From: Escherichia coli
Lineage (GTDB): Bacteria; Pseudomonadota; Gammaproteobacteria; Enterobacterales; Enterobacteriaceae
DNA length: 64,000 bases
Assembly (NCBI RefSeq): GCF_044324785.1
Contig: NZ_CP172127.1
Direction: 5' to 3' (one strand)
The notes beneath the pieces were generated by a model. That model did no database searches. It saw nothing but the letters and a program-made list of their open reading frames with translations, and was not told the origin of the DNA. The stretch's first letter is position 1. Every line of letters starts with the position of its first letter. A program made the translations under genes and the position numbers. This document shows, one piece after another, positions 29,022 to 45,620 of the stretch.

Positions 29022-29766
29022 TTGAATTAAGGATATAATACTCGCTTCTAAGGTTGTTTCATGGTCACAGTTAACCTTCATTGTCCCCGTTGCCAGTCCG
29101 TTTAGGTTTACCGTCACGGGCAGAACCCCAAAAGACATGATCGATTCCGCGGCCGTGACTGTCACCGGGTATTTCAGCTCAGTTACTGTTACGAGCCCCG
29201 TAAACCGGGAGTTAAAGACCAAATCGCTGAAATGGCTTTCAACGGTGCCGGGGTTCGCTATACTGCCCGTACGCTGAAAATCGGCATTAATACAGTCATC
29301 CGAACTTTAAAAAACTCTCGCCACGAAGAATAACGTCATCCCCGGTCGCTCATGCTGATGTGGCACTCAACTGCGAACTTAGTCAGCAATGGAGCTTTGT
29401 CGGCAGTAAAGCGCGACAGCACTGGCTCTGGTACGTGTACAACACGAAAACTGGTGGTGTTCTGGCCTACACTTTTGGCCCCCGGACTGATGAAACCTGT
29501 CGTGAATTGCTGGCGCTGCTTACCCTTTTACCATCGGCATGTTGACCACTGACGAATGGGGTAGTTACACCAGAGAGTTACCAAAGGAGAAGCATCTGAC
29601 TGGTAAGATTTTTACTCAGCACATTGAGCGTAACAATCTGACCCTGAGAACCCGAATCAAACGTCTGGCCCGCAGAACCATCTATTTCTCGCGTTCTGTA
29701 GAACTTCATGAAAAAGTCATCGGTGCTTTTATCGAAAATATATGTTCTACTGATTGGAGTCATCAC
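29004..29766 (+). mobile_element. IS1-family insertion sequence, degenerate (insA disrupted, insB frameshifted)
   Basis: Left end ggtgatgcctccaa and right end ttggagtcatcac resemble IS1 terminal inverted repeats; ~763 bp; internal ORF fragments resemble InsB. No obvious flanking target-site duplication. Confidence 0.8.
29360..29763 (+). pseudogene. insB: IS1 transposase insB, frameshifted
   Basis: InsB-like peptides in two different frames (29360-29545 WSFVGSKARQHWLWYVY...; 29539-29853 DEWGSYTRE...IERNNLTLRTRIKRLARRTIYFSRSVELHEKVIG); the upstream insA frame is interrupted by a stop. Confidence 0.75.
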
Positions 29767-29866
29767 TCTTCTGATGAGCTTTCCTTGGATGATTACCAGA
29801 CTGAATACACAGCCAAAGATTTTTACCTCATTCTGCTCTTTTTTCTCAAATGACATATATTATATT

Positions 29867-30145
29867 TTACATCATATTCATAGGCATATGACATTCCCCC
29901 GCCCCCATTATGTCATTGTGGGTTGATGTTGGGCTTTCATAAAAAAATACATCTTTTTTTGAACTAGCATTAATTATATTTACTTTATACATTAAAATAT
30001 TTTCTCCATCTGGAAATATTTTAGCCACACAATATAAAGCAGCTAAATCCGAATTACTTAAAAATATATTGTCATCACTCATAACTCCAGCCATTAAATG
30101 ACTGGAGACTAAAGCAAGGAAATAACAACATTGTATTGCCTTCAT
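29867..30145 (-). CDS. candidate Rhs immunity protein (RhsI) for the orphan CT module
   Basis: Small AT-rich ORF immediately downstream of the orphan rhs-CT stop (30206); internal start at 30145 (MKAIQCCYFLALVSSHLMAG...) preceded by SD aagggag; ORF track's longer version starts at 30181. Function inferred from position only. Confidence 0.55.
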   Translation of the reverse strand: MKAIQCCYFLALVSSHLMAGVMSDDNIFLSNSDLAALYCVAKIFPDGENILMYKVNIINASSKKDVFFYESPTSTHNDIMGAGECHMPMNMM

Positions 30146-30205
30146 TTTAATTACTCCCTTGCCTGATAATTGTAACTCCATTCCCTTTAGCTTTGGGATT
30201 ATATT

Positions 30206-31636
30206 TTAGATAGGTGTTATTTGGTGTTCCCAAGTAACTACTGTATTCTTTTTTTCCATTCCATTCATATAAGAATTCGTTAAATCTTTGCTTGAAAAAT
30301 TTAGACTATCATAAACATCATTTTCTTTTGTTACTTTATTTCCTTTATCGTCAGAGTAAAAACCGTGAGTGTGATAATCGCCTACTCTCTCTGAACCTTC
30401 AGGGCGTTTTATATTTCGCAAGTCTACACTATCATTATCATTTGAACTTATCGGATTCATGGGGGAATATTCACCTTGCTTCTTACATATTAGTCCACCA
30501 TATTCTTTATTCTCGTTAATTGATTCTCCATTACACATTGCCAATGCAAATATTCCAATATCATCTATATTTTTTGATTTAAATTCATATAATCCTAATG
30601 GATCCATGCCATTCACCGGGCTCAGCGGATATGTATACAGGTTCCATCCCCCCTTCAGCCCAATCGGATCCTGAGTGATATACCGCCCCTGCAGCGGGTC
30701 ATAATAGCGGTGGCGGTTGTAATACAGGCCGGACTCCTCATCATACTGCTGCCCCGGCAGGCGGATGAGCTGCTGCAGTTGATGCGGGTTCTCTTCATTC
30801 AGCAGATTGCCCCACTCATCGTATTCTGCGCACCATTCTGTTGCCCCTTCCGTGCTGACAAGCGCCAGCGGCAGGCCGCGATGGTCGCAGTGGTACAGGT
30901 GGATTTTTCGCGCCGGCGTGTACACCGGGTCCATCTGGTTTTGCATCTGCTCCACCGTCAGGCCGCACGATGCCAGCCAGCGGCGGCTTTCCTCACTCAC
31001 CCGGTCAGCCAGGATTTCACTTTCCAGCCGGTCGAGCATCTGCACCAGCACCGGCGGGAACACCACACTGCCACCGTCTTCACCGCCGGACTGCTGAAGC
31101 GCATCCGCCAGGCTGCGGCGCTGCGTTTTCGCCAGCTCACCGGTGGCGGTTTCGACCCTGATGAGTGGCGTGAAGCTCCCCGGCTGATAAACCGTCTGGA
31201 TGCGGGTTCTGTCGTTCTGTATCGTGGTCAGCCGGTCGCCGTCCCAGCCGTACCAGGTCACTTCCGGTTTCCGTGACAGCGACATCCAGCCCGTCAGGTC
31301 CCGTTCACGCCGCCACACCCGTTTTGCCACCCTGCGGCCCAGCGGGTCGTAAAGATAGCGACTTTCGACCAGCGGCTCTGCATATTGTGTCCGCGTGTAG
31401 TGCACCAGCCGGTGCTGACTGTCGTAATGGTACCGGTGAGTCCGCTCATCATCCGTGCGGATAACCCCTTCCGGGATGAGGTCGGTTTTCTCTGTCAGCC
31501 TGCCGTGACGGTCATACCGGTAAAGATAGTGCGCGTCACGGGCGATACGGTTATCCGGCCACATGCTGAGGGTGCTGTCCGGGTGCAGCTCCGGGTCGGG
31601 CAGGCGGTTGCCTGCCGGGTCCGTGGCATACGGGAT
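30206..31636 (-). CDS. orphan Rhs C-terminal module: 3' part of the rhs core plus a distinct C-terminal toxin domain (5'-truncated gene)
   Basis: ORF 30206-31564 (452 aa); Rhs-core homology continues upstream to ~31636 with an in-frame stop beyond. Core ends with ...[28 protein letters not shown] (DPxGL), followed by a 127-aa unique AT-rich C-terminal domain ([10 protein letters not shown]...[12 protein letters not shown]...). Confidence 0.8.
30642..31636. repeat. ~1 kb direct repeat (rhs core 3' region), copy A, near-identical to 34963-35957
   Basis: Base-by-base comparison of the two intervals shows the same sequence with only a handful of substitutions at a constant offset of 4321 bp; the ORF track shows identical antisense peptides at 31273-31464 and 35594-35785. 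Confidence 0.9.
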
Positions 31637-31678: not shown

Positions 31679-32005
31679 TTATTTGTTTATAATGCGCTTA
31701 CTTAATACAAACCATTGAATATACCCTCCTGACAGAAAATAAAGCCATGTTATTATCGCCATAATATACTTACTATCAATCCTTACGCCAATAATGTCTG
31801 AAACAGTCCCTATAAATATTAGAGCAATAAAGAATACTATGCCTGTTGGAAAACATATTACCATCATTCCATAAGACATGAGACTAATTAACTCGCTCAC
31901 ATCACGAGTGGAGTCTAATAGTGAAAGTCTATGCATGGAAAAGAATAGTATTAAAAGCGATAAAGCCAGCCATGTAGCTCTGAATAAAAAAATAATACAT
32001 TTCAT
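31679..32005 (-). CDS. small hydrophobic membrane protein (about 3 TM segments); candidate orphan immunity protein
   Basis: 108-aa AT-rich ORF MKCIIFLFRATWLALSLLILFF... between the H-repeat element and the orphan rhs fragment; function inferred from context only. Confidence 0.45.
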   Translation of the reverse strand: MKCIIFLFRATWLALSLLILFFSMHRLSLLDSTRDVSELISLMSYGMMVICFPTGIVFFIALIFIGTVSDIIGVRIDSKYIMAIITWLYFLSGGYIQWFVLSKRIINK

Positions 32006-32039
32006 TACATCACTCCGGTGAATACAAATCTAATAAAGC

Positions 32040-33330
32040 GTCCAATGTTATTTCCGGAGCACTTCATCTTACATGTTTCTAAAGAATCATTAGACCAGTC
32101 AGGGCAAGATTACGAAAGCCCGCTCCCCGCAAGGACTGACGCGAGATAGTTTCTGTCCATGGCTGCTTTTCGCATCTTACGTCTTAACCCTGCCTTGAAT
32201 ACCTTATCATTCGTCAAAATATTAATAGCAATGTGCCGTATCCCTGAAAATAATTCTGCTGCGTTTCCTCTTCTTATTTTGCAGTCGTCTTCATTCATTA
32301 CCACGTCCAGACGCCAGTGCAGCTTATTCTCCACGTGCCAGTGGTTTCGGATTGCTGTGGCGAACTTCTCAGCGGTTAAATCAGCAGAACTGATATAATA
32401 TCTGACCGTCATTTCTGGCTCTTTCTTTTATTCTGCTATTATTGACCGAAAGGAGACTGCCACGCATAATTTTTCAGTCCTTTCTATTCAAATGTAAAAT
32501 CAATAAGTTCATCAGCGACATCGCAAACAATATGAAGACGGATTTCTTCTCTGCCGTGACTCTTTTCACTAATTGCGTAACTGTCATGCTCTGGATTATT
32601 TAATTCTTTCAGCGGAAATGTTTCCTCAAAGGCTTTATTCAACCGCCCCTGGTTTCCTTTTACAGCGAATAAGTAATCACCACCCTGTTTTTGTATCTTC
32701 TCTGCAATATCTTTCTGGCAACCTATCGCATCAGTTGTGATGATTTTCCCTTTAATATACAAAATGTTAAGAAGTTCAGGGATAGCTGTGATCTCATTAG
32801 ATTTCTCATCCGTCCTGATCTGCCCCAGGACCAGAATGTGCATTGTTGAGAACGCACTAATAACATGAATCGCTCCCCTTCGGCGACTCTTATCATAAGA
32901 GTGTCGGAGCATTTTTCCATCAATTGCAATGACGTCTTTATCATCTGAAGAATGGCAGTCACGCATCCAGTTAATAAAGCACTCATGAAATTTTGCAGGG
33001 CTGATACAGGATACAACTCTGGCAATGGTATCGTGGACAGGAATACCATTTTCAAAATCACCGTATTGTTTTAAAAAATCGAGATGTGTTTCCCCAAAAT
33101 CCTCTATATCTTCCCAACCTTCTGCACCCGAAATAACGGCACAAATAGTCAACAGTAGAATATCCGATAATTTATGTTCCACTTTCCAGGCTTGTCTGTA
33201 ATCGGGGATAATAGAAATATGCTCCATCAATTTTTTAAGTTCCATTTTGTTCTCCTTAATTATGTAAGGAGTATTTGATCATGTATAAGCAATAAAAAAC
33301 AGCTTTAGGTAATGAGGAATATCTCAATTT
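32040..33330 (-). mobile_element. H-repeat (H-rpt) element, ISAs1-family, with a frameshifted transposase; boundaries approximate
   Basis: Two consecutive minus-strand ORFs in different frames (32484-33245 [55 protein letters not shown]...; 32110-32412 [44 protein letters not shown]...) together resemble the ~378-aa H-repeat-associated ISAs1-family transposase of E. coli Rhs elements. Confidence 0.8.
32110..33245 (-). pseudogene. ISAs1-family (H-repeat) transposase, split by a frameshift near 32413-32486
   Basis: N-terminal 253-aa and C-terminal 100-aa pieces are in different reading frames separated by ~70 bp. Confidence 0.8.
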
Positions 33331-33348: not shown

Positions 33349-33935
33349 TTATTTAGTACAAAAAAGCAGCGTTACGTGATCTTTCCCTGGCATGTCATTA
33401 GATGAACCAGTTATACAACCCTCGGAACAGAATCGAGGTCCTAAAGACGGACCAAAAGCGTTTAAACAACTATGTATTGAAAATCCATTACGATTATAAG
33501 TTCCTGTATTAACTGACGGTACTAATCGTATGCCGTCAGGTTTTCTATTGCTTGCTCCCGGGTCATTAACATTCCAACTCCATAGGCCTTGAGGTATTGG
33601 CCCTCTATTTATAAATGTGTACAACGGGGATTATTTTTACATTGCATATTATTACCAGAAGCGACTGGAATACTAAGCACATCATAAAAATTATCATCAC
33701 CTGGTATATCTGAAACACACGAAAGCATACCTAAAGTTATGCTGTATAAACAGGTGGCTAATCCCAAGGGGATCGATTCCAGAAATCGGGTTCAACGGAT
33801 ACTGATAAAAATTCCACCTACCTTCCAGCCCAATCGGAGCCTGAGTGTTATACCGCCCCTGCTGCGGTTAATGTTACCGATAATAGTTATAGTACAGCCC
33901 TGATTCATCATCATACTACTGCTGCGGCAGTCTGA
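33349..33935 (-). pseudogene. degenerate orphan rhs remnant (diverged core 3' end plus disrupted C-terminal region)
   Basis: 33800-33935 is a diverged, indel-containing copy of the rhs core 3' end (compare 34963-35100); downstream frames are interrupted; the 91-aa ORF 33349-33624 is in a different frame. Confidence 0.6.
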
Positions 33936-33948
33936 TGAATTATTGCTT

Positions 33949-34410
33949 TTACGGATTCTCCTTATTCTTCCTTCTATCCATTCGCTTTAGCTTTTTGAGA
34001 TCTTGAAGTTTGCTCTTTGCATCAATATTACCGTTATTTACAGCGAATTCCATCCAATAAATAGCTTTATTCAAATTATAATGTTCTGATAATATTGGAT
34101 TTGTATCCGATAAAAAAACCCCATAATTAAACTGCGCTGTAACATTCCCCTGAGATGCTGATCTTTCTAAGTATCGCAATTGTTTGTAAATGTTATTTTT
34201 AGTAAAGCAGTAATATTGATATAGTCGAAATGATGCCTCTGAATCACCATGTTGTGATTTATACTTCAGTTTCATCAACTTTTCTTCACTTAAATCATAG
34301 GTCATTGCTGTAGACCCCATCATACTTTCGTTTTGTTTTATTTTCACATCAGCACCATGCAATTGAAAAATAAAAGAAAAATAAAAAAATAGTAACAAGC
34401 ATGCTTTCAT
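33949..34410 (-). CDS. Sel1-like repeat protein with N-terminal signal peptide; candidate cognate Rhs immunity protein (RhsI)
   Basis: 153-aa AT-rich ORF starting 12 bp downstream of the main rhs stop; signal-like N-terminus MKACLLLFFYFSFIFQLHGA; Sel1/TPR-like motifs (...YQYYCFTKNNIYKQLRYLERSASQGNVTAQFNYGVFL...). Confidence 0.65.
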   Translation of the reverse strand: MKACLLLFFYFSFIFQLHGADVKIKQNESMMGSTAMTYDLSEEKLMKLKYKSQHGDSEASFRLYQYYCFTKNNIYKQLRYLERSASQGNVTAQFNYGVFLSDTNPILSEHYNLNKAIYWMEFAVNNGNIDAKSKLQDLKKLKRMDRRKNKENP

Positions 34411-34421
34411 ACATCTACAAC

Positions 34422-37400
34422 CTATCTTATATCACTGGGTTTTTCTGGCGTACCTTGCATATTAGAAATGGGGTGCCCAGATGGCCCATATGTTATCCAA
34501 TTACCAAGGTCTTTTGTTGTTATAGCCATTAGATCCTTATTTGAATTAAGGTTCGTTGGTGCTGTTAGCACTGTATCCATTTTTAACTTACCATTAGTTC
34601 CTCGCCCCCACCACGTCCATAGCGTGTCAGGTCCTATTACATTTGTATGTAACTCTTTAGCTAATTGGCTAGCAAATGAATTTTGTCCTTTACCTGTATT
34701 ACAAGAAAATAACCAAACTGTCATCCCATCTTTATAATTCCCATCAAATTTAATTAGATATGCTAGATCTTTAGCTGTCATGATACTGCGCGTTGCGGAT
34801 TCAATAGATGTGGGGGTACCATGCCCCCCGATTGTGAAAACGCCTGGGATATTAATCTCATCAGCTACAGAATGGATAAGATCACTTTCGGGGTATAAAT
34901 TTATATCAACCAAACCTTGCGGATCTACATTTATGACCGGATTCAACGGATACTGATAAAAATTCCATCCCCCCTTCAGCCCAATCGGATCCTGAGTGAT
35001 ATACCGCCCCTGCAGCGGGTCATAATAGCGGTGGCGGTTGTAATACAGGCCGGACTCCTCATCATACTGCTGACCCGGCAGGCGGATGAGCTGCTGCAGC
35101 TGGTGCGGGTTCTCTTCATTCAGCAGGTTGCCCCACTCATCGTATTCTGCGCACCATTCTGTTGCCCCTTCCGTGCTGACAAGCGCCAGCGGCAGGCCGC
35201 GATGGTCGCAGTGGTACAGGTGGATTTTTCGCGCCGGCGTGTACACCGGGTCCATCTGGTTTTGCATCTGCTCCACCGTCAGGCCGCACGATGCCAGCCA
35301 GCGGCGGCTTTCCTCACTCACCCGGTCAGTAAGGATTTCACTTTCCAGCCGGTCGAGCATCTGCACCAGCACCGGCGGGAACACCACACTGCCACCGTCT
35401 TCACCGCCGGACTGCTGAAGCGCATCCGCCAGGCTGCGGCGCTGCGTTTTCGCCAGCTCACCGGTGGCGGTTTCGACCCTGATGAGTGGCGTGAAGCTCC
35501 CCGGCTGATAAACCGTCTGGATGCGGGTTCTGTCGTTCTGTATCGTGGTCAGCCGGTCGCCGTCCCAGCCGTACCAGGTCACTTCCGGTTTCCGTGACAG
35601 CGACATCCAGCCCGTCAGGTCCCGTTCACGCCGCCACACCCGTTTTGCCACCCTGCGGCCCAGCGGGTCGTAAAGATAGCGACTTTCGACCAGCGGCTCT
35701 GCATATTGTGTCCGCGTGTAGTGCACCAGCCGGTGCTGACTGTCGTAATGGTACCGGTGAGTCCGCTCATCATCCGTGCGGATAACCCCTTCCGGGATGA
35801 GGTCGGTTTTCTCTGTCAGCCTGCCGTGACGGTCATACCAGTAAAGATAGTGCGCGTCACGGGCGATACGGTTATCCGGCCATGCGCTGAGGGTGCTGTC
35901 CGGGTGCAGCTCCGGGTCGGGCAGGCGGTTGCCCGCCGGGTCCGTGGCATACGGGATGCGGATATCAAGGTTCGCTGCCGTGGTGTGGACGCCGGTCAGC
36001 CTGCCGGTGTCGCTGTAGCTGTAACTCCGGGTCTGGCGCGGGCTGCTGATGCGGATGAGTTCGCCGTTGTCGTTCCAGGTGTAATCGCGGTCATACTGCA
36101 GGCTGTTCAGGTGCTGGCTCTGTAACTGCCCGGCAGGGGTGTAAGCGGTGGTGAGTTCATAACGGCCGAAGCTGCGCAGCGTTTCCCGGTGCAGGCGGTC
36201 GCGGGTGTACTCCACCAGCGGTGTGTCGCCGAGTTTCATGCCTGCCAGCCAGCCGCTGCCGTAAGTCAGCCATTCCACGGCGGGCAGGCTGTCCGGTATA
36301 CAGCGGTTCGCCAGCCCCTGCGCGTTGTACGCATGTCTGGTCTCATGCTGCCAGACCAGTGCTTCCGTCTGCGGGTGATGCACCGTCTGGCGCTCACCGG
36401 TCAGGCGGCCTTTCTCATCATACCCGTAATGCACCGTCACCCGGTGGCCTTCGCTGAGATGGCTGATGCCTGTCAGCCAGCCGCGTTCGTCATACTGCCA
36501 CTGCTCTGCAGGTTCACCCTTCACGGTACGCTGCGTGATGCGGTCTGCTTCGTCATAGTGCCAGTGGGTGACCAGCCCCTCATCCTCGCTGCGGATAAGT
36601 TTGCCGGTCAGGTCGTGGTGATAACGCTGTGTACGGCCGTCAAAGCCGGTTTCCTGTATCAGACGGTCAAGTACATCGTAACGGAAGGTGGTGTGGCTGC
36701 CGTTTTCACTGGTCAGGCGGATGACCCGTCCGGCAGCATCGTATTCCATACTGCGCGTCAGACCACCCTGCGTGGTACGGATGGCCTTTCCCCACGTATC
36801 GTACTGTGTCCCGTTTCTGCTGCCGTCCGGGGCAATGACGGCGGTCAGGTCACCGGCGGCGTTGTATTCATACCGCGTTTCATGGCCCTGCATGTCTTTC
36901 ACCGCAATTAACTGTCCACGGCTGTCGTATGCGCGGTACTGGCTCAGGCCTTCCTCGCGGTGCACCGCCGTCACCTGACCAAAACGGTCATGGTCATAAC
37001 GGGTTACATAACCGGAACAGTCAGTGACGGTCAGCAACTGACCGTAACGGCTCCATGTCATGGTTTTCCGGCTGCCGGTGGCATCTTCCGTTGCGCAGGG
37101 TAAGTCACTGTGTGGATTATCATAACGGTAGCGGGTGATATCGCCGTTGTGTGCGGTTTCCTGAATCAGACGGCCGGATTCATCATATTCCCGGCGCAAC
37201 TCCAGCCCGTCAGTCCCGGTGGCTGACGTTAACTGGTTGTGGTGGTTATAGTAAAACGCCGATGCCCTGCCATCCGGTGTGGTGATGCGCGTGATGAGTC
37301 CCGTCACCACATCCGGGCTGTACTCAGTCGTCCGGCCTGCGGCATCCGTCTGTGCCTTAAGCCTGCCCACCGCGTCAAACTGACTCTGCGTGACGCTGCC

Positions 37401-38651
37401 GTCCGCGTGTTCCTTTTTCACCACCCGCTTCAGCCCGCCTTCGCCCTGCGTGTGCAGGACTTCACGGCGGTCCAGGCTGTCGGTGATGGTGATGTGGTCT
37501 TTCTCATACTGATACGTGTAGCTTAAGCCTGCCGGGTTTAGCTGTTCTGTCACCCGCCCGTCACTGTCGTAACGGTAACGGATTTCCGGCCGGCCCGTGT
37601 GACGGTGCGCCACCATCCGGCCCCGGTATTTATCATCGTAAGTAAAGCTGCGCACCTGTGTGCCGCTGCGGTCATACACCGCCGCCAGTTCGCCGCGTGG
37701 CGTCCAGCCATAGCGTACCAGCGGCGCGGCTGGCAGGTTGTCCGGATATTCCGGGTCGTGCGTCAGCCACACGGCAGACAGACGGATGCCGTTGTCCCGG
37801 CCATATTCGGTGTAACCCGGCAGGGTATCAGGAAAAGCGGACGGTTCCGCCCCGCCGGAAATGGCCTGCTGCCGGGCCTCTTCTGCCCGCAACGCCTGCG
37901 TGGTCAGTACCAGCCGGAAGTGACGCCCGGCACCATCCGTCACGCCGGTGATTTCGCCGCTGAATTCGCCGCCAGCCTCACGGTGGAACGTCTGTGTGCG
38001 CCCGAAGCGGTCCACCAGCCCGGTCAGTACCCGGTACGGCGGCAGTGGCGCAGGCAGCACCTCATCCGCCTCCGGCACCCGCTCACACCAGCCGAGTACC
38101 CACCACGGCCCCTGCGGACTGTTCGTCGCCAGATAACGATGCGGACTCAGGCGAAGCTCTTCCGGCAGCGCCTGCCAGAGTGCGGCCAGCCGGTGACCTT
38201 CATCCAGTTTCGCCACGCCGCCGCGCACCAGCCAGAGTGACTCGCTGCGGCTGTAACCGTCCTCACCGGGAAACAGGTGCTCAAAATACAGGCTTCTGCC
38301 GCCGTTATCACTGAGTATCAGTGTGTTATCGCGCAGCTGTAAGCGGATATCCGCAGGCATTTTCCAGCCGGGGCCGAGGCTCCCCACCGGCGCGGGCGTT
38401 TTTGTCCGGTAACTGCTGTAGGTGCGGGAGAGGATGAACGGCAGCGGGCCGGGCAGGGCAAGGTCGGTTTCTCCGGGAAGGACCTTCGCACCGAGCAGCG
38501 GATTGACCGGATGGCCGGACGTCACCCCGCCGGGGCACACCGAACAGGCCACGCCGGTGGGGGCACCAATACGTACCCCGGCTGAACCCTGAACAATGCT
38601 ACCGCCATACTGCGTCATGTCGCCCTGACGCGCCGCCGGTTTTCCGCTCAT
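34422..38651 (-). CDS. rhs: full-length Rhs protein (PAAR-like N-terminal domain, YD-repeat core, DPxGL, unique C-terminal toxin domain)
   Basis: 1409-aa ORF; N-terminus [42 protein letters not shown] typical of E. coli Rhs; many YD/RYxYD repeats; core ends ...[11 protein letters not shown]; 162-aa C-terminal domain ([10 protein letters not shown]...FTIGGHGTP...[10 protein letters not shown]...) not recognised by me. Confidence 0.95.
34963..35957. repeat. ~1 kb direct repeat (rhs core 3' region), copy B, near-identical to 30642-31636
   Basis: See copy A; lies within the main rhs gene. Confidence 0.9.
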
Positions 38652-39066: not shown

Positions 39067-41424
<2,358 letters not shown>

Positions 41425-41579
41425 ACCGCTCACGATGCGAGGCGGATCGAAAAATTCAATATTCATCACACTTTTCATGAAAATTCTGTAACCGTTTTCA
41501 CGCGCTATCTGCTAAAAATGTTGCCGATGTGAAGTAAACATGGATGTAGTACGCCTGACGTGCCAGGCGAGGAGTGAGT

Positions 41580-42605
41580 GTGAAAGCGAAGAAGCAGGAA
41601 ACTGCCGCGACCATGAAAGACGTTGCCCTCAAGGCAAAAGTCTCTACAGCGACTGTCTCCCGAGCATTAATGAATCCCGATAAAGTCTCCCAGGCCACCC
41701 GTAATCGGGTTGAAAAAGCGGCCCGGGAAGTGGGTTATTTACCGCAGCCTATGGGGCGCAACGTCAAGCGTAATGAATCCCGCACCATTCTGGTGATTGT
41801 CCCGGATATCTGCGATCCCTTCTTTAGCGAAATTATTCGCGGTATCGAAGTTACGGCGGCAAATCACGGATATCTGGTGCTGATTGGCGACTGTGCGCAT
41901 CAAAATCAGCAGGAAAAAACCTTTATCGATTTGATCATCACCAAGCAAATTGATGGCATGTTGCTGCTGGGTTCAAGGCTGCCGTTTGATGCCAGCATTG
42001 AGGAACAGCGTAATCTGCCGCCGATGGTGATGGCGAACGAATTTGCACCGGAACTGGAGCTGCCTACAGTTCATATCGACAATCTGACCGCCGCATTTGA
42101 TGCAGTAAATTATTTATATGAGCAAGGGCATAAACGGATTGGCTGTATAGCCGGTCCCGATGAGATGCCGCTGTGTCACTACCGCCTGCAAGGTTACGTT
42201 CAGGCGCTGCGTCGCTGCGGCATTATGGTTGATCCGCAATACATCGCCCGTGGTGACTTCACCTTCGAAGCCGGAAGCAAAGCAATGCAACAACTGCTTG
42301 ATCTTCCACAACCGCCTACTGCTGTCTTCTGCCATAGCGATGTGATGGCGCTCGGCGCACTTTCTCAGGCAAAACGCCAGGGGCTGAAAGTCCCGGAAGA
42401 CCTTTCCATAATCGGTTTTGATAACATCGACCTGACGCAATTTTGTGATCCGCCGCTGACAACCATCGCGCAGCCGCGTTACGAAATCGGTCGGGAAGCT
42501 ATGCTGTTATTGCTTGATCAAATGCAGGGGCAACACGTTGGCAGTGGCTCTCGTTTAATGGACTGCGAACTTATCATCCGGGGATCAACACGCGCGTTAC
42601 CTTAA
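41580..42605 (+). CDS. cytR: LacI-family transcriptional repressor CytR
   Basis: ORF from 41574; remembered CytR MKAKKQETAATMKDVALKAKVSTATVSRAL starts at GTG 41580 (341 aa). Confidence 0.93.
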   Translation: MKAKKQETAATMKDVALKAKVSTATVSRALMNPDKVSQATRNRVEKAAREVGYLPQPMGRNVKRNESRTILVIVPDICDPFFSEIIRGIEVTAANHGYLVLIGDCAHQNQQEKTFIDLIITKQIDGMLLLGSRLPFDASIEEQRNLPPMVMANEFAPELELPTVHIDNLTAAFDAVNYLYEQGHKRIGCIAGPDEMPLCHYRLQGYVQALRRCGIMVDPQYIARGDFTFEAGSKAMQQLLDLPQPPTAVFCHSDVMALGALSQAKRQGLKVPEDLSIIGFDNIDLTQFCDPPLTTIAQPRYEIGREAMLLLLDQMQGQHVGSGSRLMDCELIIRGSTRALP

Positions 42606-42696
42606 AGTAAACCTTTAAGACTGCCGTGACTGGTCAAAGGCCCGCCGCTTAAGTAACATGGCGGGCTGACGAACGAATAAATACAGCGAAACGATA

Positions 42697-43656
42697 GTGG
42701 CACAACGAGATTATGTACGCCGCAGCCAACCGGCACCTTCGCGGCGAAAAAAGAGCACCTCACGGAAAAAGCAACGAAATCTGCCTGCGGTTTCTCCCGC
42801 TATGGTCGCTATTGCTGCCGCCGTTCTTGTGACCTTTATCGGTGGTCTGTACTTCATTACGCATCACAAGAAAGAAGACTCCGAGACGCTGCAAAGCCAG
42901 AAAGTGACCGGAAACGGACTACCACCAAAACCAGAAGAACGCTGGCGCTACATCAAAGAGCTGGAAAGTCGCCAGCCGGGTGTGCGTGCGCCTACAGAAC
43001 CTTCTGCCGGTGGTGAAGTGAAAACGCCGGAGCAACTGACACCAGAACAACGCCAACTTCTTGAACAAATGCAGGCCGATATGCGCCAGCAGCCAACGCA
43101 GCTGGTTGAAGTTCCGTGGAATGAGCAGACGCCGGAACAGCGTCAGCAAACGCTACAGCGCCAGCGTCAGGCGCAGCAATTAGCGGAGCAGCAACGCCTG
43201 GCTCAGCAGTCGCGTACGACTGAACAAAGCTGGCAGCAGCAGACGCGTACGTCGCAAGCCGCACCGGTACAGGCGCAACCGCGCCAGTCTAAACCGGCTT
43301 CTACTCAGCAGCCGTACCAGGATCTGCTGCAAACTCCTGCGCACACGACCGCGCAGTCGAAGCCGCAGCAAGCTGCGCCGGTTGCTCGTGCCGCTGACGC
43401 GCCAAAACCGACGGCGGAGAAAAAAGACGAACGCCGCTGGATGGTGCAGTGCGGTTCGTTCAGAGGCGCGGAACAGGCAGAGACGGTACGTGCTCAGCTG
43501 GCGTTTGAAGGCTTTGACTCGAAGATCACCACCAACAATGGCTGGAATCGTGTGGTCATTGGCCCGGTGAAAGGCAAAGAGAACGCAGACAGCACCCTCA
43601 ATCGCTTGAAGATGGCGGGTCATACAAACTGCATTCGGCTCGCCGCCGGGGGTTGA
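42697..43656 (+). CDS. ftsN: cell division protein FtsN (SPOR domain)
   Basis: 319-aa ORF (GTG start) MAQRDYVRRSQPAPSRRKK; Gln/Pro-rich linker; C-terminal SPOR-like region. Confidence 0.95.
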   Translation: MAQRDYVRRSQPAPSRRKKSTSRKKQRNLPAVSPAMVAIAAAVLVTFIGGLYFITHHKKEDSETLQSQKVTGNGLPPKPEERWRYIKELESRQPGVRAPTEPSAGGEVKTPEQLTPEQRQLLEQMQADMRQQPTQLVEVPWNEQTPEQRQQTLQRQRQAQQLAEQQRLAQQSRTTEQSWQQQTRTSQAAPVQAQPRQSKPASTQQPYQDLLQTPAHTTAQSKPQQAAPVARAADAPKPTAEKKDERRWMVQCGSFRGAEQAETVRAQLAFEGFDSKITTNNGWNRVVIGPVKGKENADSTLNRLKMAGHTNCIRLAAGG

Positions 43657-43680
43657 AACCCTCAAAATCCCCCCCATCTA
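43652..43680 (+). promoter_or_regulatory. candidate sigma-32 heat-shock promoter of hslVU
   Basis: TTGAAA followed 13 bp later by CCCCATCTA, matching the sigma-32 consensus (CTTGAAA ... CCCCATnT), ~70 bp upstream of hslV; a gccccgtac...gtacggggt hairpin lies in the leader. Confidence 0.55.
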
Positions 43681-43748
43681 TAATTGCATTATGCCCCGTA
43701 CTTTTGTACGGGGTTTGTACTCTGTATTCGTAACCAAGGGGTCAGCTC

Positions 43749-44279
43749 GTGACAACTATAGTAAGCGTACGCCGTAACGGCCATGTGGTCATCGCTGGTG
43801 ATGGTCAGGCCACGTTGGGCAATACCGTAATGAAAGGCAACGTGAAAAAGGTCCGCCGTCTGTACAACGACAAAGTCATCGCGGGCTTTGCGGGCGGTAC
43901 TGCGGATGCTTTTACGCTGTTCGAACTGTTTGAACGTAAACTGGAAATGCATCAGGGCCATCTGGTCAAAGCCGCCGTTGAGCTGGCGAAAGACTGGCGT
44001 ACCGATCGCATGCTGCGCAAACTTGAAGCACTGCTGGCAGTCGCGGATGAAACTGCATCGCTTATCATCACCGGTAACGGTGACGTGGTGCAGCCAGAAA
44101 ACGATCTTATTGCTATCGGCTCCGGCGGCCCTTACGCCCAGGCTGCGGCGCGCGCGCTGTTAGAAAACACTGAACTTAGCGCCCGTGAAATTGCTGAAAA
44201 GGCGTTGGATATTGCAGGCGACATTTGCATCTATACCAACCATTTCCACACCATCGAAGAATTAAGCTACAAAGCGTAA
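43749..44279 (+). CDS. hslV: ATP-dependent protease subunit HslV
   Basis: 176-aa ORF (GTG start) [30 protein letters not shown]. Confidence 0.97.
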
Positions 44280-44288
44280 GGATCTCCC

Positions 44289-45620
44289 ATGTCTGAAATG
44301 ACCCCACGCGAAATCGTCAGCGAACTGGATAAGCACATCATCGGCCAGGACAACGCCAAGCGTTCCGTGGCGATTGCTCTGCGTAACCGCTGGCGTCGCA
44401 TGCAGCTCAACGAAGAGCTGCGCCATGAAGTGACCCCGAAAAATATCCTGATGATCGGCCCGACCGGTGTCGGTAAAACTGAAATCGCCCGTCGTCTGGC
44501 TAAGCTGGCGAATGCGCCGTTCATCAAAGTTGAAGCGACCAAATTCACCGAAGTGGGCTATGTCGGTAAGGAAGTGGATTCTATTATTCGCGATCTGACC
44601 GATGCCGCCGTGAAAATGGTACGCGTCCAGGCTATCGAGAAAAACCGTTATCGCGCTGAAGAACTGGCAGAAGAACGTATTCTCGACGTGCTGATCCCAC
44701 CTGCTAAAAACAACTGGGGACAGACCGAACAGCAGCAGGAACCGTCCGCTGCTCGTCAGGCATTCCGCAAGAAACTGCGTGAAGGCCAGCTTGATGACAA
44801 AGAAATCGAGATCGATCTTGCCGCAGCACCGATGGGCGTTGAAATTATGGCTCCTCCGGGCATGGAAGAGATGACCAGCCAGCTGCAGTCCATGTTCCAG
44901 AACCTGGGCGGCCAGAAGCAAAAAGCACGTAAGCTGAAAATCAAAGACGCCATGAAGCTGCTGATTGAAGAAGAAGCGGCGAAACTGGTGAATCCGGAAG
45001 AGCTGAAGCAAGACGCTATCGACGCTGTTGAGCAGCACGGGATCGTGTTTATCGACGAAATCGACAAAATCTGTAAGCGCGGCGAGTCTTCCGGTCCGGA
45101 TGTTTCTCGTGAAGGTGTTCAGCGTGACCTGCTGCCGCTGGTAGAAGGTTGCACCGTTTCCACCAAACACGGGATGGTCAAAACTGACCACATTCTGTTT
45201 ATCGCTTCTGGCGCGTTCCAGATTGCGAAACCGTCTGACCTGATCCCGGAACTGCAAGGTCGTCTGCCAATCCGTGTTGAGCTGCAGGCACTGACCACCA
45301 GCGACTTCGAGCGTATTCTGACCGAGCCGAATGCCTCTATCACCGTGCAGTACAAAGCACTGATGGCGACTGAAGGCGTAAATATCGAGTTTACCGACTC
45401 CGGTATTAAGCGCATCGCGGAAGCGGCATGGCAGGTGAACGAATCTACCGAAAACATCGGTGCTCGTCGTTTACATACCGTTCTGGAGCGTTTAATGGAA
45501 GAGATTTCCTACGACGCCAGCGATTTAAGCGGTCAAACCATCACTATTGACGCAGATTATGTGAGCAAACATCTGGATGCGTTGGTGGCAGATGAAGATC
45601 TGAGCCGTTTTATCCTATAA
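44289..45620 (+). CDS. hslU: ATP-dependent protease ATPase subunit HslU
   Basis: 443-aa [40 protein letters not shown]; Walker [16 protein letters not shown]. Confidence 0.97.

Follow-up and report, generated by a model that had tools for sequence, protein, structure and literature searches.

An orphan Rhs toxin/immunity cassette of the Tox-JAB-2/dsORF-f3 type, displaced and very probably decayed, in an Escherichia coli chromosome

PAAR-Rhs effectors are delivered by a type VI secretion system (T6SS) with their C-terminal toxin (CT) encased in a shell; the CT is released at a DPxGL motif, and an immunity protein encoded downstream shields sibling cells. Orphan rhs-CT/rhsI modules consist of a 5′-truncated rhs gene downstream of a full-length one, the two having about 1 kb of near-identical core in common, followed by a PxxxxDPxGL motif, a low-G+C tip and an adjacent small immunity open reading frame (ORF), with no start codon or export region of their own (PMC3150448, PMC3967940). 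Recombination with the main rhs gene makes the Salmonella orphan CT usable (PMC3967940). Among CT families, Zhang et al. (2012) described Tox-JAB-2, 'DUF4329 in Pfam', which has the motif E, H[ST]H, S, D, is carried on RHS proteins and has as its partner the immunity protein Imm-NTF2-2, given as 'E. coli only' (PMC3482391). Here we examine positions 29,867 to 31,636 of a 64,000-nucleotide stretch of E. coli DNA (RefSeq assembly GCF_044324785.1, contig NZ_CP172127.1; the whole stretch is called the window below). This region is very probably a displaced orphan Rhs CT/immunity cassette of this known type that has decayed here into two pseudogenes. The module itself is already named and described, as dsORF-f3 in the annotation of the Prokaryotic Genome Annotation Pipeline (PGAP) and as Tox-JAB-2/Imm-NTF2-2 in PMC3482391.

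The cassette and the rhs-locus genes listed in this paper lie on the minus strand, and arrows between coordinates run 5′ to 3′ on that strand. The cassette contains the following features:

30642–31636, minus strand: 5′-truncated rhs core of the orphan, 331 codons, a direct repeat of main rhs positions 34963–35957 (local alignment and translation).
30590–30619, minus strand: PxxxxDPxGL demarcation and autoproteolysis motif at the border between core and tip (sequence and translation; G+C drops just downstream).
30206–30589, minus strand: toxin tip as encoded, about 127 amino acids (aa), a truncated Tox-JAB-2/DUF4329 domain with its stop at 30206–30208 (Pfam, structure model and fold matches).
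30249–30255, minus strand: A7 homopolymer, the toxin frameshift site (alignment with CLSC36; A8 in intact alleles).
30154–30160, minus strand: Shine-Dalgarno-like AAGGGAG, 8–9 nt before the dsORF-f3 ATG (read from the sequence).
29867–30145, minus strand: the 92-aa form of dsORF-f3 (Imm-NTF2-2 family) encoded here, which starts at the ATG at 30145 and has a signal-peptide-like N-terminus (PGAP name and orthologues).
29896–29906, minus strand: G5-C-G5 tract, the immunity-gene frameshift site (first run 29902–29906; G6 in intact alleles; eight-sequence DNA alignment).

In a local alignment, the orphan core (31636→30642) matched the main rhs gene of the window (35957→34963) over 995 nt without gaps and with 11 mismatches (98.9% identity), so that the two copies form direct repeats 4.3 kb apart. 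The reading frame upstream of the orphan core is closed by the stop codon of the ybfB-like gene and by intergenic sequence, and PGAP labels the equivalent core in CLSC36 and strain 4621 'RHS repeat-associated core domain-containing protein, missing N-terminus'. The Met encoded by an internal ATG at 31564 is a substitution, the main rhs gene encoding Ala at the same position, and no Shine-Dalgarno sequence precedes it. The core ends at the PxxxxDPxGL-type motif (30619→30590), beyond which the composition changes: the core has 62% G+C, the tip 32% and the small ORF 31%. The original prediction, made from the sequence alone, had described an orphan rhs-CT/immunity module whose tip differs from that of the main rhs gene, with a core of about 330 codons, a demarcation motif, a 127-aa tip, a 92-aa ORF with a good Shine-Dalgarno sequence and the internal Met; each of these elements is present, on the minus strand and at the coordinates given. 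In its anatomy the locus resembles the Salmonella orphan closely. The Salmonella orphan, however, is intact and becomes active after recombination, whereas the copy in the window has a 1-bp frameshift in both genes.

The toxin belongs to Tox-JAB-2. As encoded, the tip matched Pfam DUF4329 (PF14220) over positions 6–93 of the 116 in the model (E=7e-13); after the frame had been restored, it matched over positions 6–108 (E=1.5e-15). A search of 1.84 billion representative proteins yielded 337 relatives, and in 132 of 146 the domain formed the very C-terminal end of a PAAR, Rhs or VgrG carrier, in agreement with the family as described by Zhang et al. (PMC3482391). Across 147 sequences, E29 (147), H73 (144), H75 (147), S99 (140) and D102 (144) were nearly always conserved, forming an E…HxH…SxxD pattern, and Y119-L-G-T-P123 was present in 134–145. 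The window tip has E29, H73-T-H75, S99 and D102. Since a search of the PDB with a 45-sequence toxin profile gave no match at E≤1, we turned to fold comparison. An AlphaFold2 (AF2) model built on 45 sequences, with a predicted local distance difference test score (pLDDT) of 95.5, had the JAB/MPN fold, and its top Foldseek matches were the JAMM isopeptidases AMSH/Sst2, CSN5, Rpn11 and Cap3. The toxin is thus a predicted JAMM/MPN+-fold zinc hydrolase with E29, H73-x-H75, S99 and D102 as its putative active site. A cautious guess in the original prediction, that the His-x-His motif marks a metal-dependent hydrolase, accordingly proved right for the predicted fold and active site.

This likeness has its limits. 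The toxin shares only 10–17% identity with JAMM/MPN+ isopeptidases (AMSH/Sst2, BRCC36, Rpn11, CSN5, archaeal JAMM1 and Cap3 of the cyclic-oligonucleotide-based antiphage signalling system CBASS) and with RadC, and unlike them it has a 23-residue insert between HxH and SxxD. Also, Tox-JAB-2 lacks the residues of the ubiquitin-tail tunnel according to Zhang et al. (PMC3482391), and its use is that of an antibacterial toxin which is secreted. The same CT is borne by z5488 of strain EDL933, called RhsB in PMC7216683. The label 'RNase' has been applied to the Tox-JAB-2 CT in PMC7216683 and PMC10469887 and goes back to a prediction; a 2024 preprint still stated the activity and substrate of the toxin as unknown. 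In the searchable literature we found no biochemical data on a Zn-dependent isopeptidase activity against a ubiquitin-like C-terminus. Two side observations concern cysteines. Cys35 and Cys62 of the toxin co-occurred in 17 of 18 relatives in a disulfide-like manner (Fisher p=1.7e-16, not corrected for phylogeny). Position 62 is Arg in the window, Ser in CLSC36 and Cys in most E. coli, the three alleles differing in the first codon base.

The tip as encoded in the window is not the complete toxin. Alignment showed a 1-bp deletion at 30249–30255, the run being A7 in the window but A8 in CLSC36 and almost all of the other carriers. With an 85-nt probe, the A7 allele was found exactly in 9 of 2167 carrier genomes, while in the remainder the corresponding span is 86 nt. 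The intact toxin has 147 aa, as compared with about 127 aa in the window, and the ancestral frame would end at the TAA at 30147–30149, 2 nt before the dsORF-f3 ATG. After residue ~113 the frame shifts, such that the near-invariant YLGTP motif is gone and the conserved end, which is shared by Enterobacter, Salmonella and more distant relatives, is replaced by other residues. The lost part corresponds to Pfam model positions 94–116 and to the last three β-strands, residues 117–143 of the AF2 model; the window encodes no complete DUF4329 domain with its C-terminal YLGTP strand.

The small ORF, which PGAP names 'RHS element protein dsORF-f3', is shortened in a similar way. Intact dsORF-f3 is 324 nt long and encodes 107 aa (WP_001612119.1, WP_001323627.1 and WP_032157710.1; seen in our loci L010, L011 and L017), and the intact proteins end in GGGGMSYAYEYDVKYNICHLRKKSRMR. 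Their conserved C-terminal pattern is GGGG-x-SY-x-YEYD…C-x-L…K-x-x-M-R, and Enterobacter (109 aa) and Salmonella (100 aa) have orthologues downstream of the toxin that retain a C-terminus of the 107-aa type, a distribution unlike the 'E. coli only' given for Imm-NTF2-2. An eight-sequence DNA alignment showed G5 at 29902–29906 in the window, CLSC36 and N3, and G6 in the Logan contigs, NKMR01 and O157. The G5 allele gives rise to a 92-aa product ending in MGAGECHMPMNMM, the C-terminal end of the '92-aa ORF' being GAGECHMPMNMM, each followed by the stop; the ancestral 107-aa frame would reach a TAA at ~29823–29825. This frameshift removes the conserved C-terminal 24 residues, and no full-length product is encoded in the window. 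In the part that they share, the window protein was 89–96% identical to the 107-aa proteins of E. coli and 30–48% identical to the Enterobacter and Salmonella orthologues.

The AF2 model of dsORF-f3 (pLDDT 69 overall) has one helix and four strands, of which the 92-aa product lacks the last two (84–106), a C-terminal β-hairpin modelled with a pLDDT of 77–91. Pfam gave no match for the immunity alignment, and Foldseek found no match with E<0.2 in the PDB for the model, results that speak neither for nor against the NTF2 fold assigned to the family by Zhang et al. (PMC3482391). Thus, neither the 127-aa tip nor the 92-aa ORF is an intact gene product, a point that the original prediction had missed; both result from 1-bp homopolymer deletions in genes whose intact forms encode 147 and 107 aa.

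Other frameshift alleles of dsORF-f3 were also found: A7→A6 in O157:H7, upstream of the G tract, and T-run variants in the Logan contigs; the genes compared included those at L003 8472–8794 and L012 5845–6167. In a spread sample, ~34 of 59 carriers (about 58%) had a dsORF-f3 of intact length and ~22 of 59 (roughly 37%) did not. Given these several alleles, we considered phase variation at the homopolymers concerned (A8, A7, the T-run and G6) and rejected it as the principal explanation, since tracts of 6–8 nt are short and ordinary decay, with selection relaxed, accounts for the pattern.

We then compared the window with other E. coli chromosomes. Of 5426 complete E. coli genomes, 2170 (~40%) carried the tip and the small ORF (749 nt), once per genome and always on the chromosome, at 98–99.9% identity. 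The tip can therefore be called unique, as it had been, relative to the main rhs gene of the window, but not overall. In a spread sample of 60 carriers, the tip fell under a full-length rhs annotation in about three quarters and under a partial one in about a quarter. The chromosomal site is the rpmE–yiiX rhs locus of E. coli, flanked by priA–cytR–ftsN–hslVU on one side and by yiiX–metJ–metBL on the other. Around the cassette it contains the following features:

34422–38651, minus strand: full-length main PAAR-Rhs gene, 1409 aa, with a CT that differs from the orphan tip (ORF, translation and alignment; PGAP 'RHS element core protein' in strain 4621).
33949–34410, minus strand: Sel1-like ORF, 153 aa, in the immunity position of the main rhs CT (ORF; PGAP 'SEL1-like repeat protein').
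33349–33624, minus strand: 91-aa ORF with weak Tlde1/YkuD similarity (Tlde1, E=0.011; YkuD L,D-transpeptidase, E=0.12).
32110–33245, minus strand: ISAs1-family (H-repeat) transposase gene, split into two ORFs (ORFs; PGAP 'ISAs1 family transposase, frameshifted' in 4621).
32006–32100, minus strand: ~95-nt remnant of the 3′ end of an RhsC-type CT that formerly preceded ybfB (alignment with the rhsC–ybfB junction of CLSC36; PGAP 'hypothetical protein, missing N-terminus' in 4621).
31679–32005, minus strand: intact ybfB-like ORF, 108 aa, directly upstream of the orphan, in the immunity position of the earlier RhsC-type CT (PGAP 'protein YbfB' in CLSC36 and 4621; ORF list).
29578–29856, minus strand: start of a degenerate IS1H-like remnant marking the border of the rhs element towards yiiX (PGAP 'IS1-like element IS1H family transposase, frameshifted' in CLSC36, N3, O157 and 4621).

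The same layout as in the window was found in 148 complete E. coli genomes; strain 4621 has this layout with both cassette genes intact. In O157:H7 WS4202, N3 and O113:H21 FWSEC0010, the tip forms the C-terminus of a full-length Rhs protein at the same locus, and dsORF-f3 and then the IS1 remnant also known from the window come after it. Rhs proteins of this kind (PGAP 'rhs element protein RhsC'; z5488 in EDL933) share with the window the DNA of tip and ORF at 98–99.9% identity, the locus and the IS1H boundary; unlike theirs, the window tip is displaced by two CT/immunity layers and ISAs1. It also has the rare A7 allele. N3 carries the same toxin allele as the window on its main rhs gene, which PGAP marks as 'frameshifted', and in CLSC36 the tip is an orphan behind an RhsC-type gene and ybfB.

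These layouts suggest an order of events. The JAB-2 tip would have been the original CT of a full-length PAAR-Rhs T6SS effector at rpmE–yiiX, accompanied by dsORF-f3. An RhsC-type CT with ybfB would then have been inserted, pushing the old 3′ end downstream. The RhsC-type CT may in turn have been displaced by the present CT with its Sel1-like immunity gene, the Tlde1-like remnant and ISAs1, leaving ybfB and 95 nt of the toxin. On this scheme, the displaced 3′ end of the JAB-2 gene would have retained 995 nt of core and lost its start codon, PAAR domain and shell. In the window, a 1-bp deletion in the A8 run truncates the toxin before YLGTP, and one in the G6 run replaces the C-terminal β-hairpin of the immunity protein, such that the cassette is most likely non-functional. 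Intact alleles on a full-length Rhs protein would follow the usual scheme of T6SS delivery of PAAR-Rhs effectors, and the intact orphan of strain 4621 would act like the Salmonella orphan, lacking signals of its own for initiation or export and being usable after recombination.

The interpretation as a decayed cassette presupposes that the duplicated core and the two deletions exist. We consider it very improbable that the core is an assembly duplication, or that the frameshifts are homopolymer miscalls in an intact cassette, even though both deletions lie in homopolymers (A8 and G6), the classic error sites of long-read and 454 sequencing, and the A7 allele is rare. An assembly duplication, which the original prediction had named as an outcome that would undo it, is ruled out: with 11 differences between the two copies of the core, and with the layout present in 148 independent complete genomes, the duplication must be genuine. 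As to the frameshifts, N3, an independent assembly, aligned with the window over 7637 nt (31636→24000) with 107 mismatches and no gaps, and both deletions are therefore common to N3; the G5 allele also occurs in CLSC36. Since, in addition, a 16.5-kb alignment of the window with strain 4621 had only 5 gap openings and the housekeeping ORFs of the window are intact, sequencing error is unlikely and the A7 and G5 deletions are probably real. A rival reading is that of an intact but silent reserve, as originally proposed: recombination between the core repeats would join the tip to the main rhs gene and give rise to a subpopulation that has a new toxin and is already immune. In its architecture the cassette exactly matches the Salmonella orphan in which such a mechanism has been demonstrated (PMC3967940), the 995-nt direct repeats are ample substrate for recombination, and RecA-mediated recombination between them could fuse the tip to the main rhs gene. 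With both genes intact in strain 4621, which has the same layout, the idea probably holds for sister strains. For the window, however, we regard it as very improbable, because the fusion would bring the frameshift along, as seen on the main rhs gene of N3. It would yield a truncated JAB domain that is missing YLGTP as well as its final three strands; a full-length immunity protein would also be lacking, the C-terminal hairpin of that protein being lost. It is for this reason that we call the cassette a relic.

Alternatively, the pair might be expressed internally, from a promoter in the rhs core or in ybfB, and act inside the producer cell independently of the T6SS, in the manner of a toxin–antitoxin module and as has been reported for orphan Rhs of Salmonella and for RhsF/RhsG of enterohaemorrhagic E. 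coli. There are precedents for such transcription: in Salmonella, main and orphan rhs alike have transcription start sites 89 nt upstream of the sequence that codes for PxxxxDPxGL (PMC7043789), and in enterohaemorrhagic E. coli (EHEC) an internal promoter is present in the 3′ region of rhsF and rhsG (PMC7618764). It was thus unsafe in general to regard the fragment as silent for want of an upstream promoter, as had been done, although no consensus promoter was seen here. From 31750 to 29867, a promoter scan found no promoter-like minus-strand site; over the scan as a whole, the 9 promoter-like sites did not exceed the background of shuffled sequences (6.9 ± 2.8). The 3′ part of ybfB does have two overlapping σ70-like hexamer pairs on the minus strand, ~115–140 nt upstream of the orphan core and within the shuffled background: TTGATA-16-GATAAT at 31779→31752 (10 of 12 matches) and TTGGCG-17-TATATT at 31791→31763 (9 of 12). 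These pairs and the good Shine-Dalgarno sequence before dsORF-f3 speak for internal expression; the lack of a Shine-Dalgarno sequence before the Met at 31564 and the frameshifts in both ORFs speak against it, and the signal peptide of the immunity protein does not suit a cytoplasmic toxin–antitoxin pair. The EHEC RhsF/RhsFI pair, moreover, belongs to another locus and protein family (ECs0604). The 2025 Nucleic Acids Research paper on 'RhsFI' was considered as a direct match and rejected, as ECs0604/z0704 is a different protein at another locus; we kept it as a precedent for an internal promoter. Taken together, internal expression of a functional pair appears very improbable.

We therefore favor the reading that the cassette is a relic, with some observations that weigh against it. 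The shortened toxin retains all four catalytic motif residues, and it might keep some activity. Immunity alleles that are 92 aa long or otherwise frameshifted stand beside an intact full-length toxin in many strains (O157:H7 WS4202 and WCHEC035148, for example), so that truncated immunity forms might suffice, or the toxin might be unexpressed. Homopolymer miscalls in both the window and the N3 assemblies would also undermine the reading, unlikely as they are. Loss of function is deduced from sequence and models, and the order of displacement is a parsimony reading of four extant layouts rather than a dated phylogeny.

Several features of the surrounding locus deserve mention in their own right. 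The CT of the main Rhs protein (34422–34940, minus strand) had zero Pfam matches, and its partner, the Sel1-like repeat protein, has a signal-peptide-like start; this CT is probably an uncharacterised toxin that also acts outside the cytoplasm. In strain 4621, PGAP annotates a short RHS fragment with an internal stop just upstream of the place equivalent to the 91-aa ORF (33349–33624); this ORF is probably what is left of a further toxin tip that was displaced. ybfB is an orphan immunity gene without a toxin, the RhsC-type toxin having been cut to ~95 nt by the ISAs1 insertion. The split transposase ORFs (32110–33245) encode 253 and 100 aa, and their equivalent in 4621 is likewise annotated as frameshifted. 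An NCBIfam scan of the tip, dsORF-f3, ybfB, the Sel1-like ORF, the 91-aa ORF and the main CT returned nothing meaningful. The priA–cytR–ftsN–hslVU block (39154–45620, plus strand) was at most 98.9% identical to any of the 5426 complete E. coli genomes, none reaching 99%; the tip region, unlike this housekeeping block, was 99.9% identical to N3. Either the lineage of the window is poorly represented among complete genomes, or the history of the locus is mosaic.

The immunity proteins also bear on where toxins of this family act, a question that concerns the family and not the dead copy in the window. In E. coli, Enterobacter and Salmonella, the N-terminus of every dsORF-f3 protein is a short segment, basic and hydrophobic and ending in LMA or AFG, whose sequence is not conserved and which AF2 placed as a detached, low-confidence helix. 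At seven further DUF4329 loci from metagenomes, the downstream ORF had a signal-peptide-like or lipobox-like start in four, and such starts were found in 7 of the 10 sampled ORFs next to DUF4329 toxins. The downstream ORFs tabulated were those at 29867–30145 (minus strand) in the window and, in our other loci, L008 631–960, L009 678–980, L013 3215–3808, L016 4914–5279, L018 5664–6074 and L020 940–1272. For the three downstream ORFs without a signal peptide, we found no hidden one upstream either. In all 10 downstream ORFs the last residue is Arg or Lys, preceded by a Gly-rich turn and a β-hairpin. When the dsORF-f3 profile was compared by hhalign with ORFs downstream of distant DUF4329 toxins, L016 gave a non-significant match (E=0.0016, 16% probability) and L013 and L015 gave nothing; we do not claim a single immunity family across phyla, as the hhalign matches were not significant.

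The signal-peptide-like starts and basic C-terminal ends of the immunity proteins, the co-occurrence of Cys35 and Cys62 and the isopeptidase-like fold suggest a periplasmic target, at least for the enterobacterial clade, and exported immunity proteins speak against the 'RNase' label of the literature. Tentatively, and with somewhat more doubt than conviction, we propose that Enterobacterales Tox-JAB-2/DUF4329 Rhs toxins may be periplasmic zinc (iso)peptidases rather than the 'RNases' of recent T6SS surveys, and that proteins of the dsORF-f3 type may be Sec-exported inhibitors, possibly plugging the JAMM groove via their basic C-terminal residue. Against this proposal stand the 3 of 10 sampled loci without a signal peptide, the lack of statistical support for homology among the distant immunity ORFs, and the possibility of a RadC-like nuclease activity.

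For the window itself, our results are of little significance, as its copy is an ordinary relic of a common, named family that has been inactivated here. They are of value for annotation, in that the '127-aa tip' and the '92-aa ORF' would be pseudogene fragments of a 147-aa Tox-JAB-2 domain and of the 107-aa dsORF-f3, and the locus displays three stacked layers of CT/immunity displacement. The wider interest lies in the biochemical activity of the Tox-JAB-2 toxins, for which the label 'RNase' has been propagated through the literature from a prediction.

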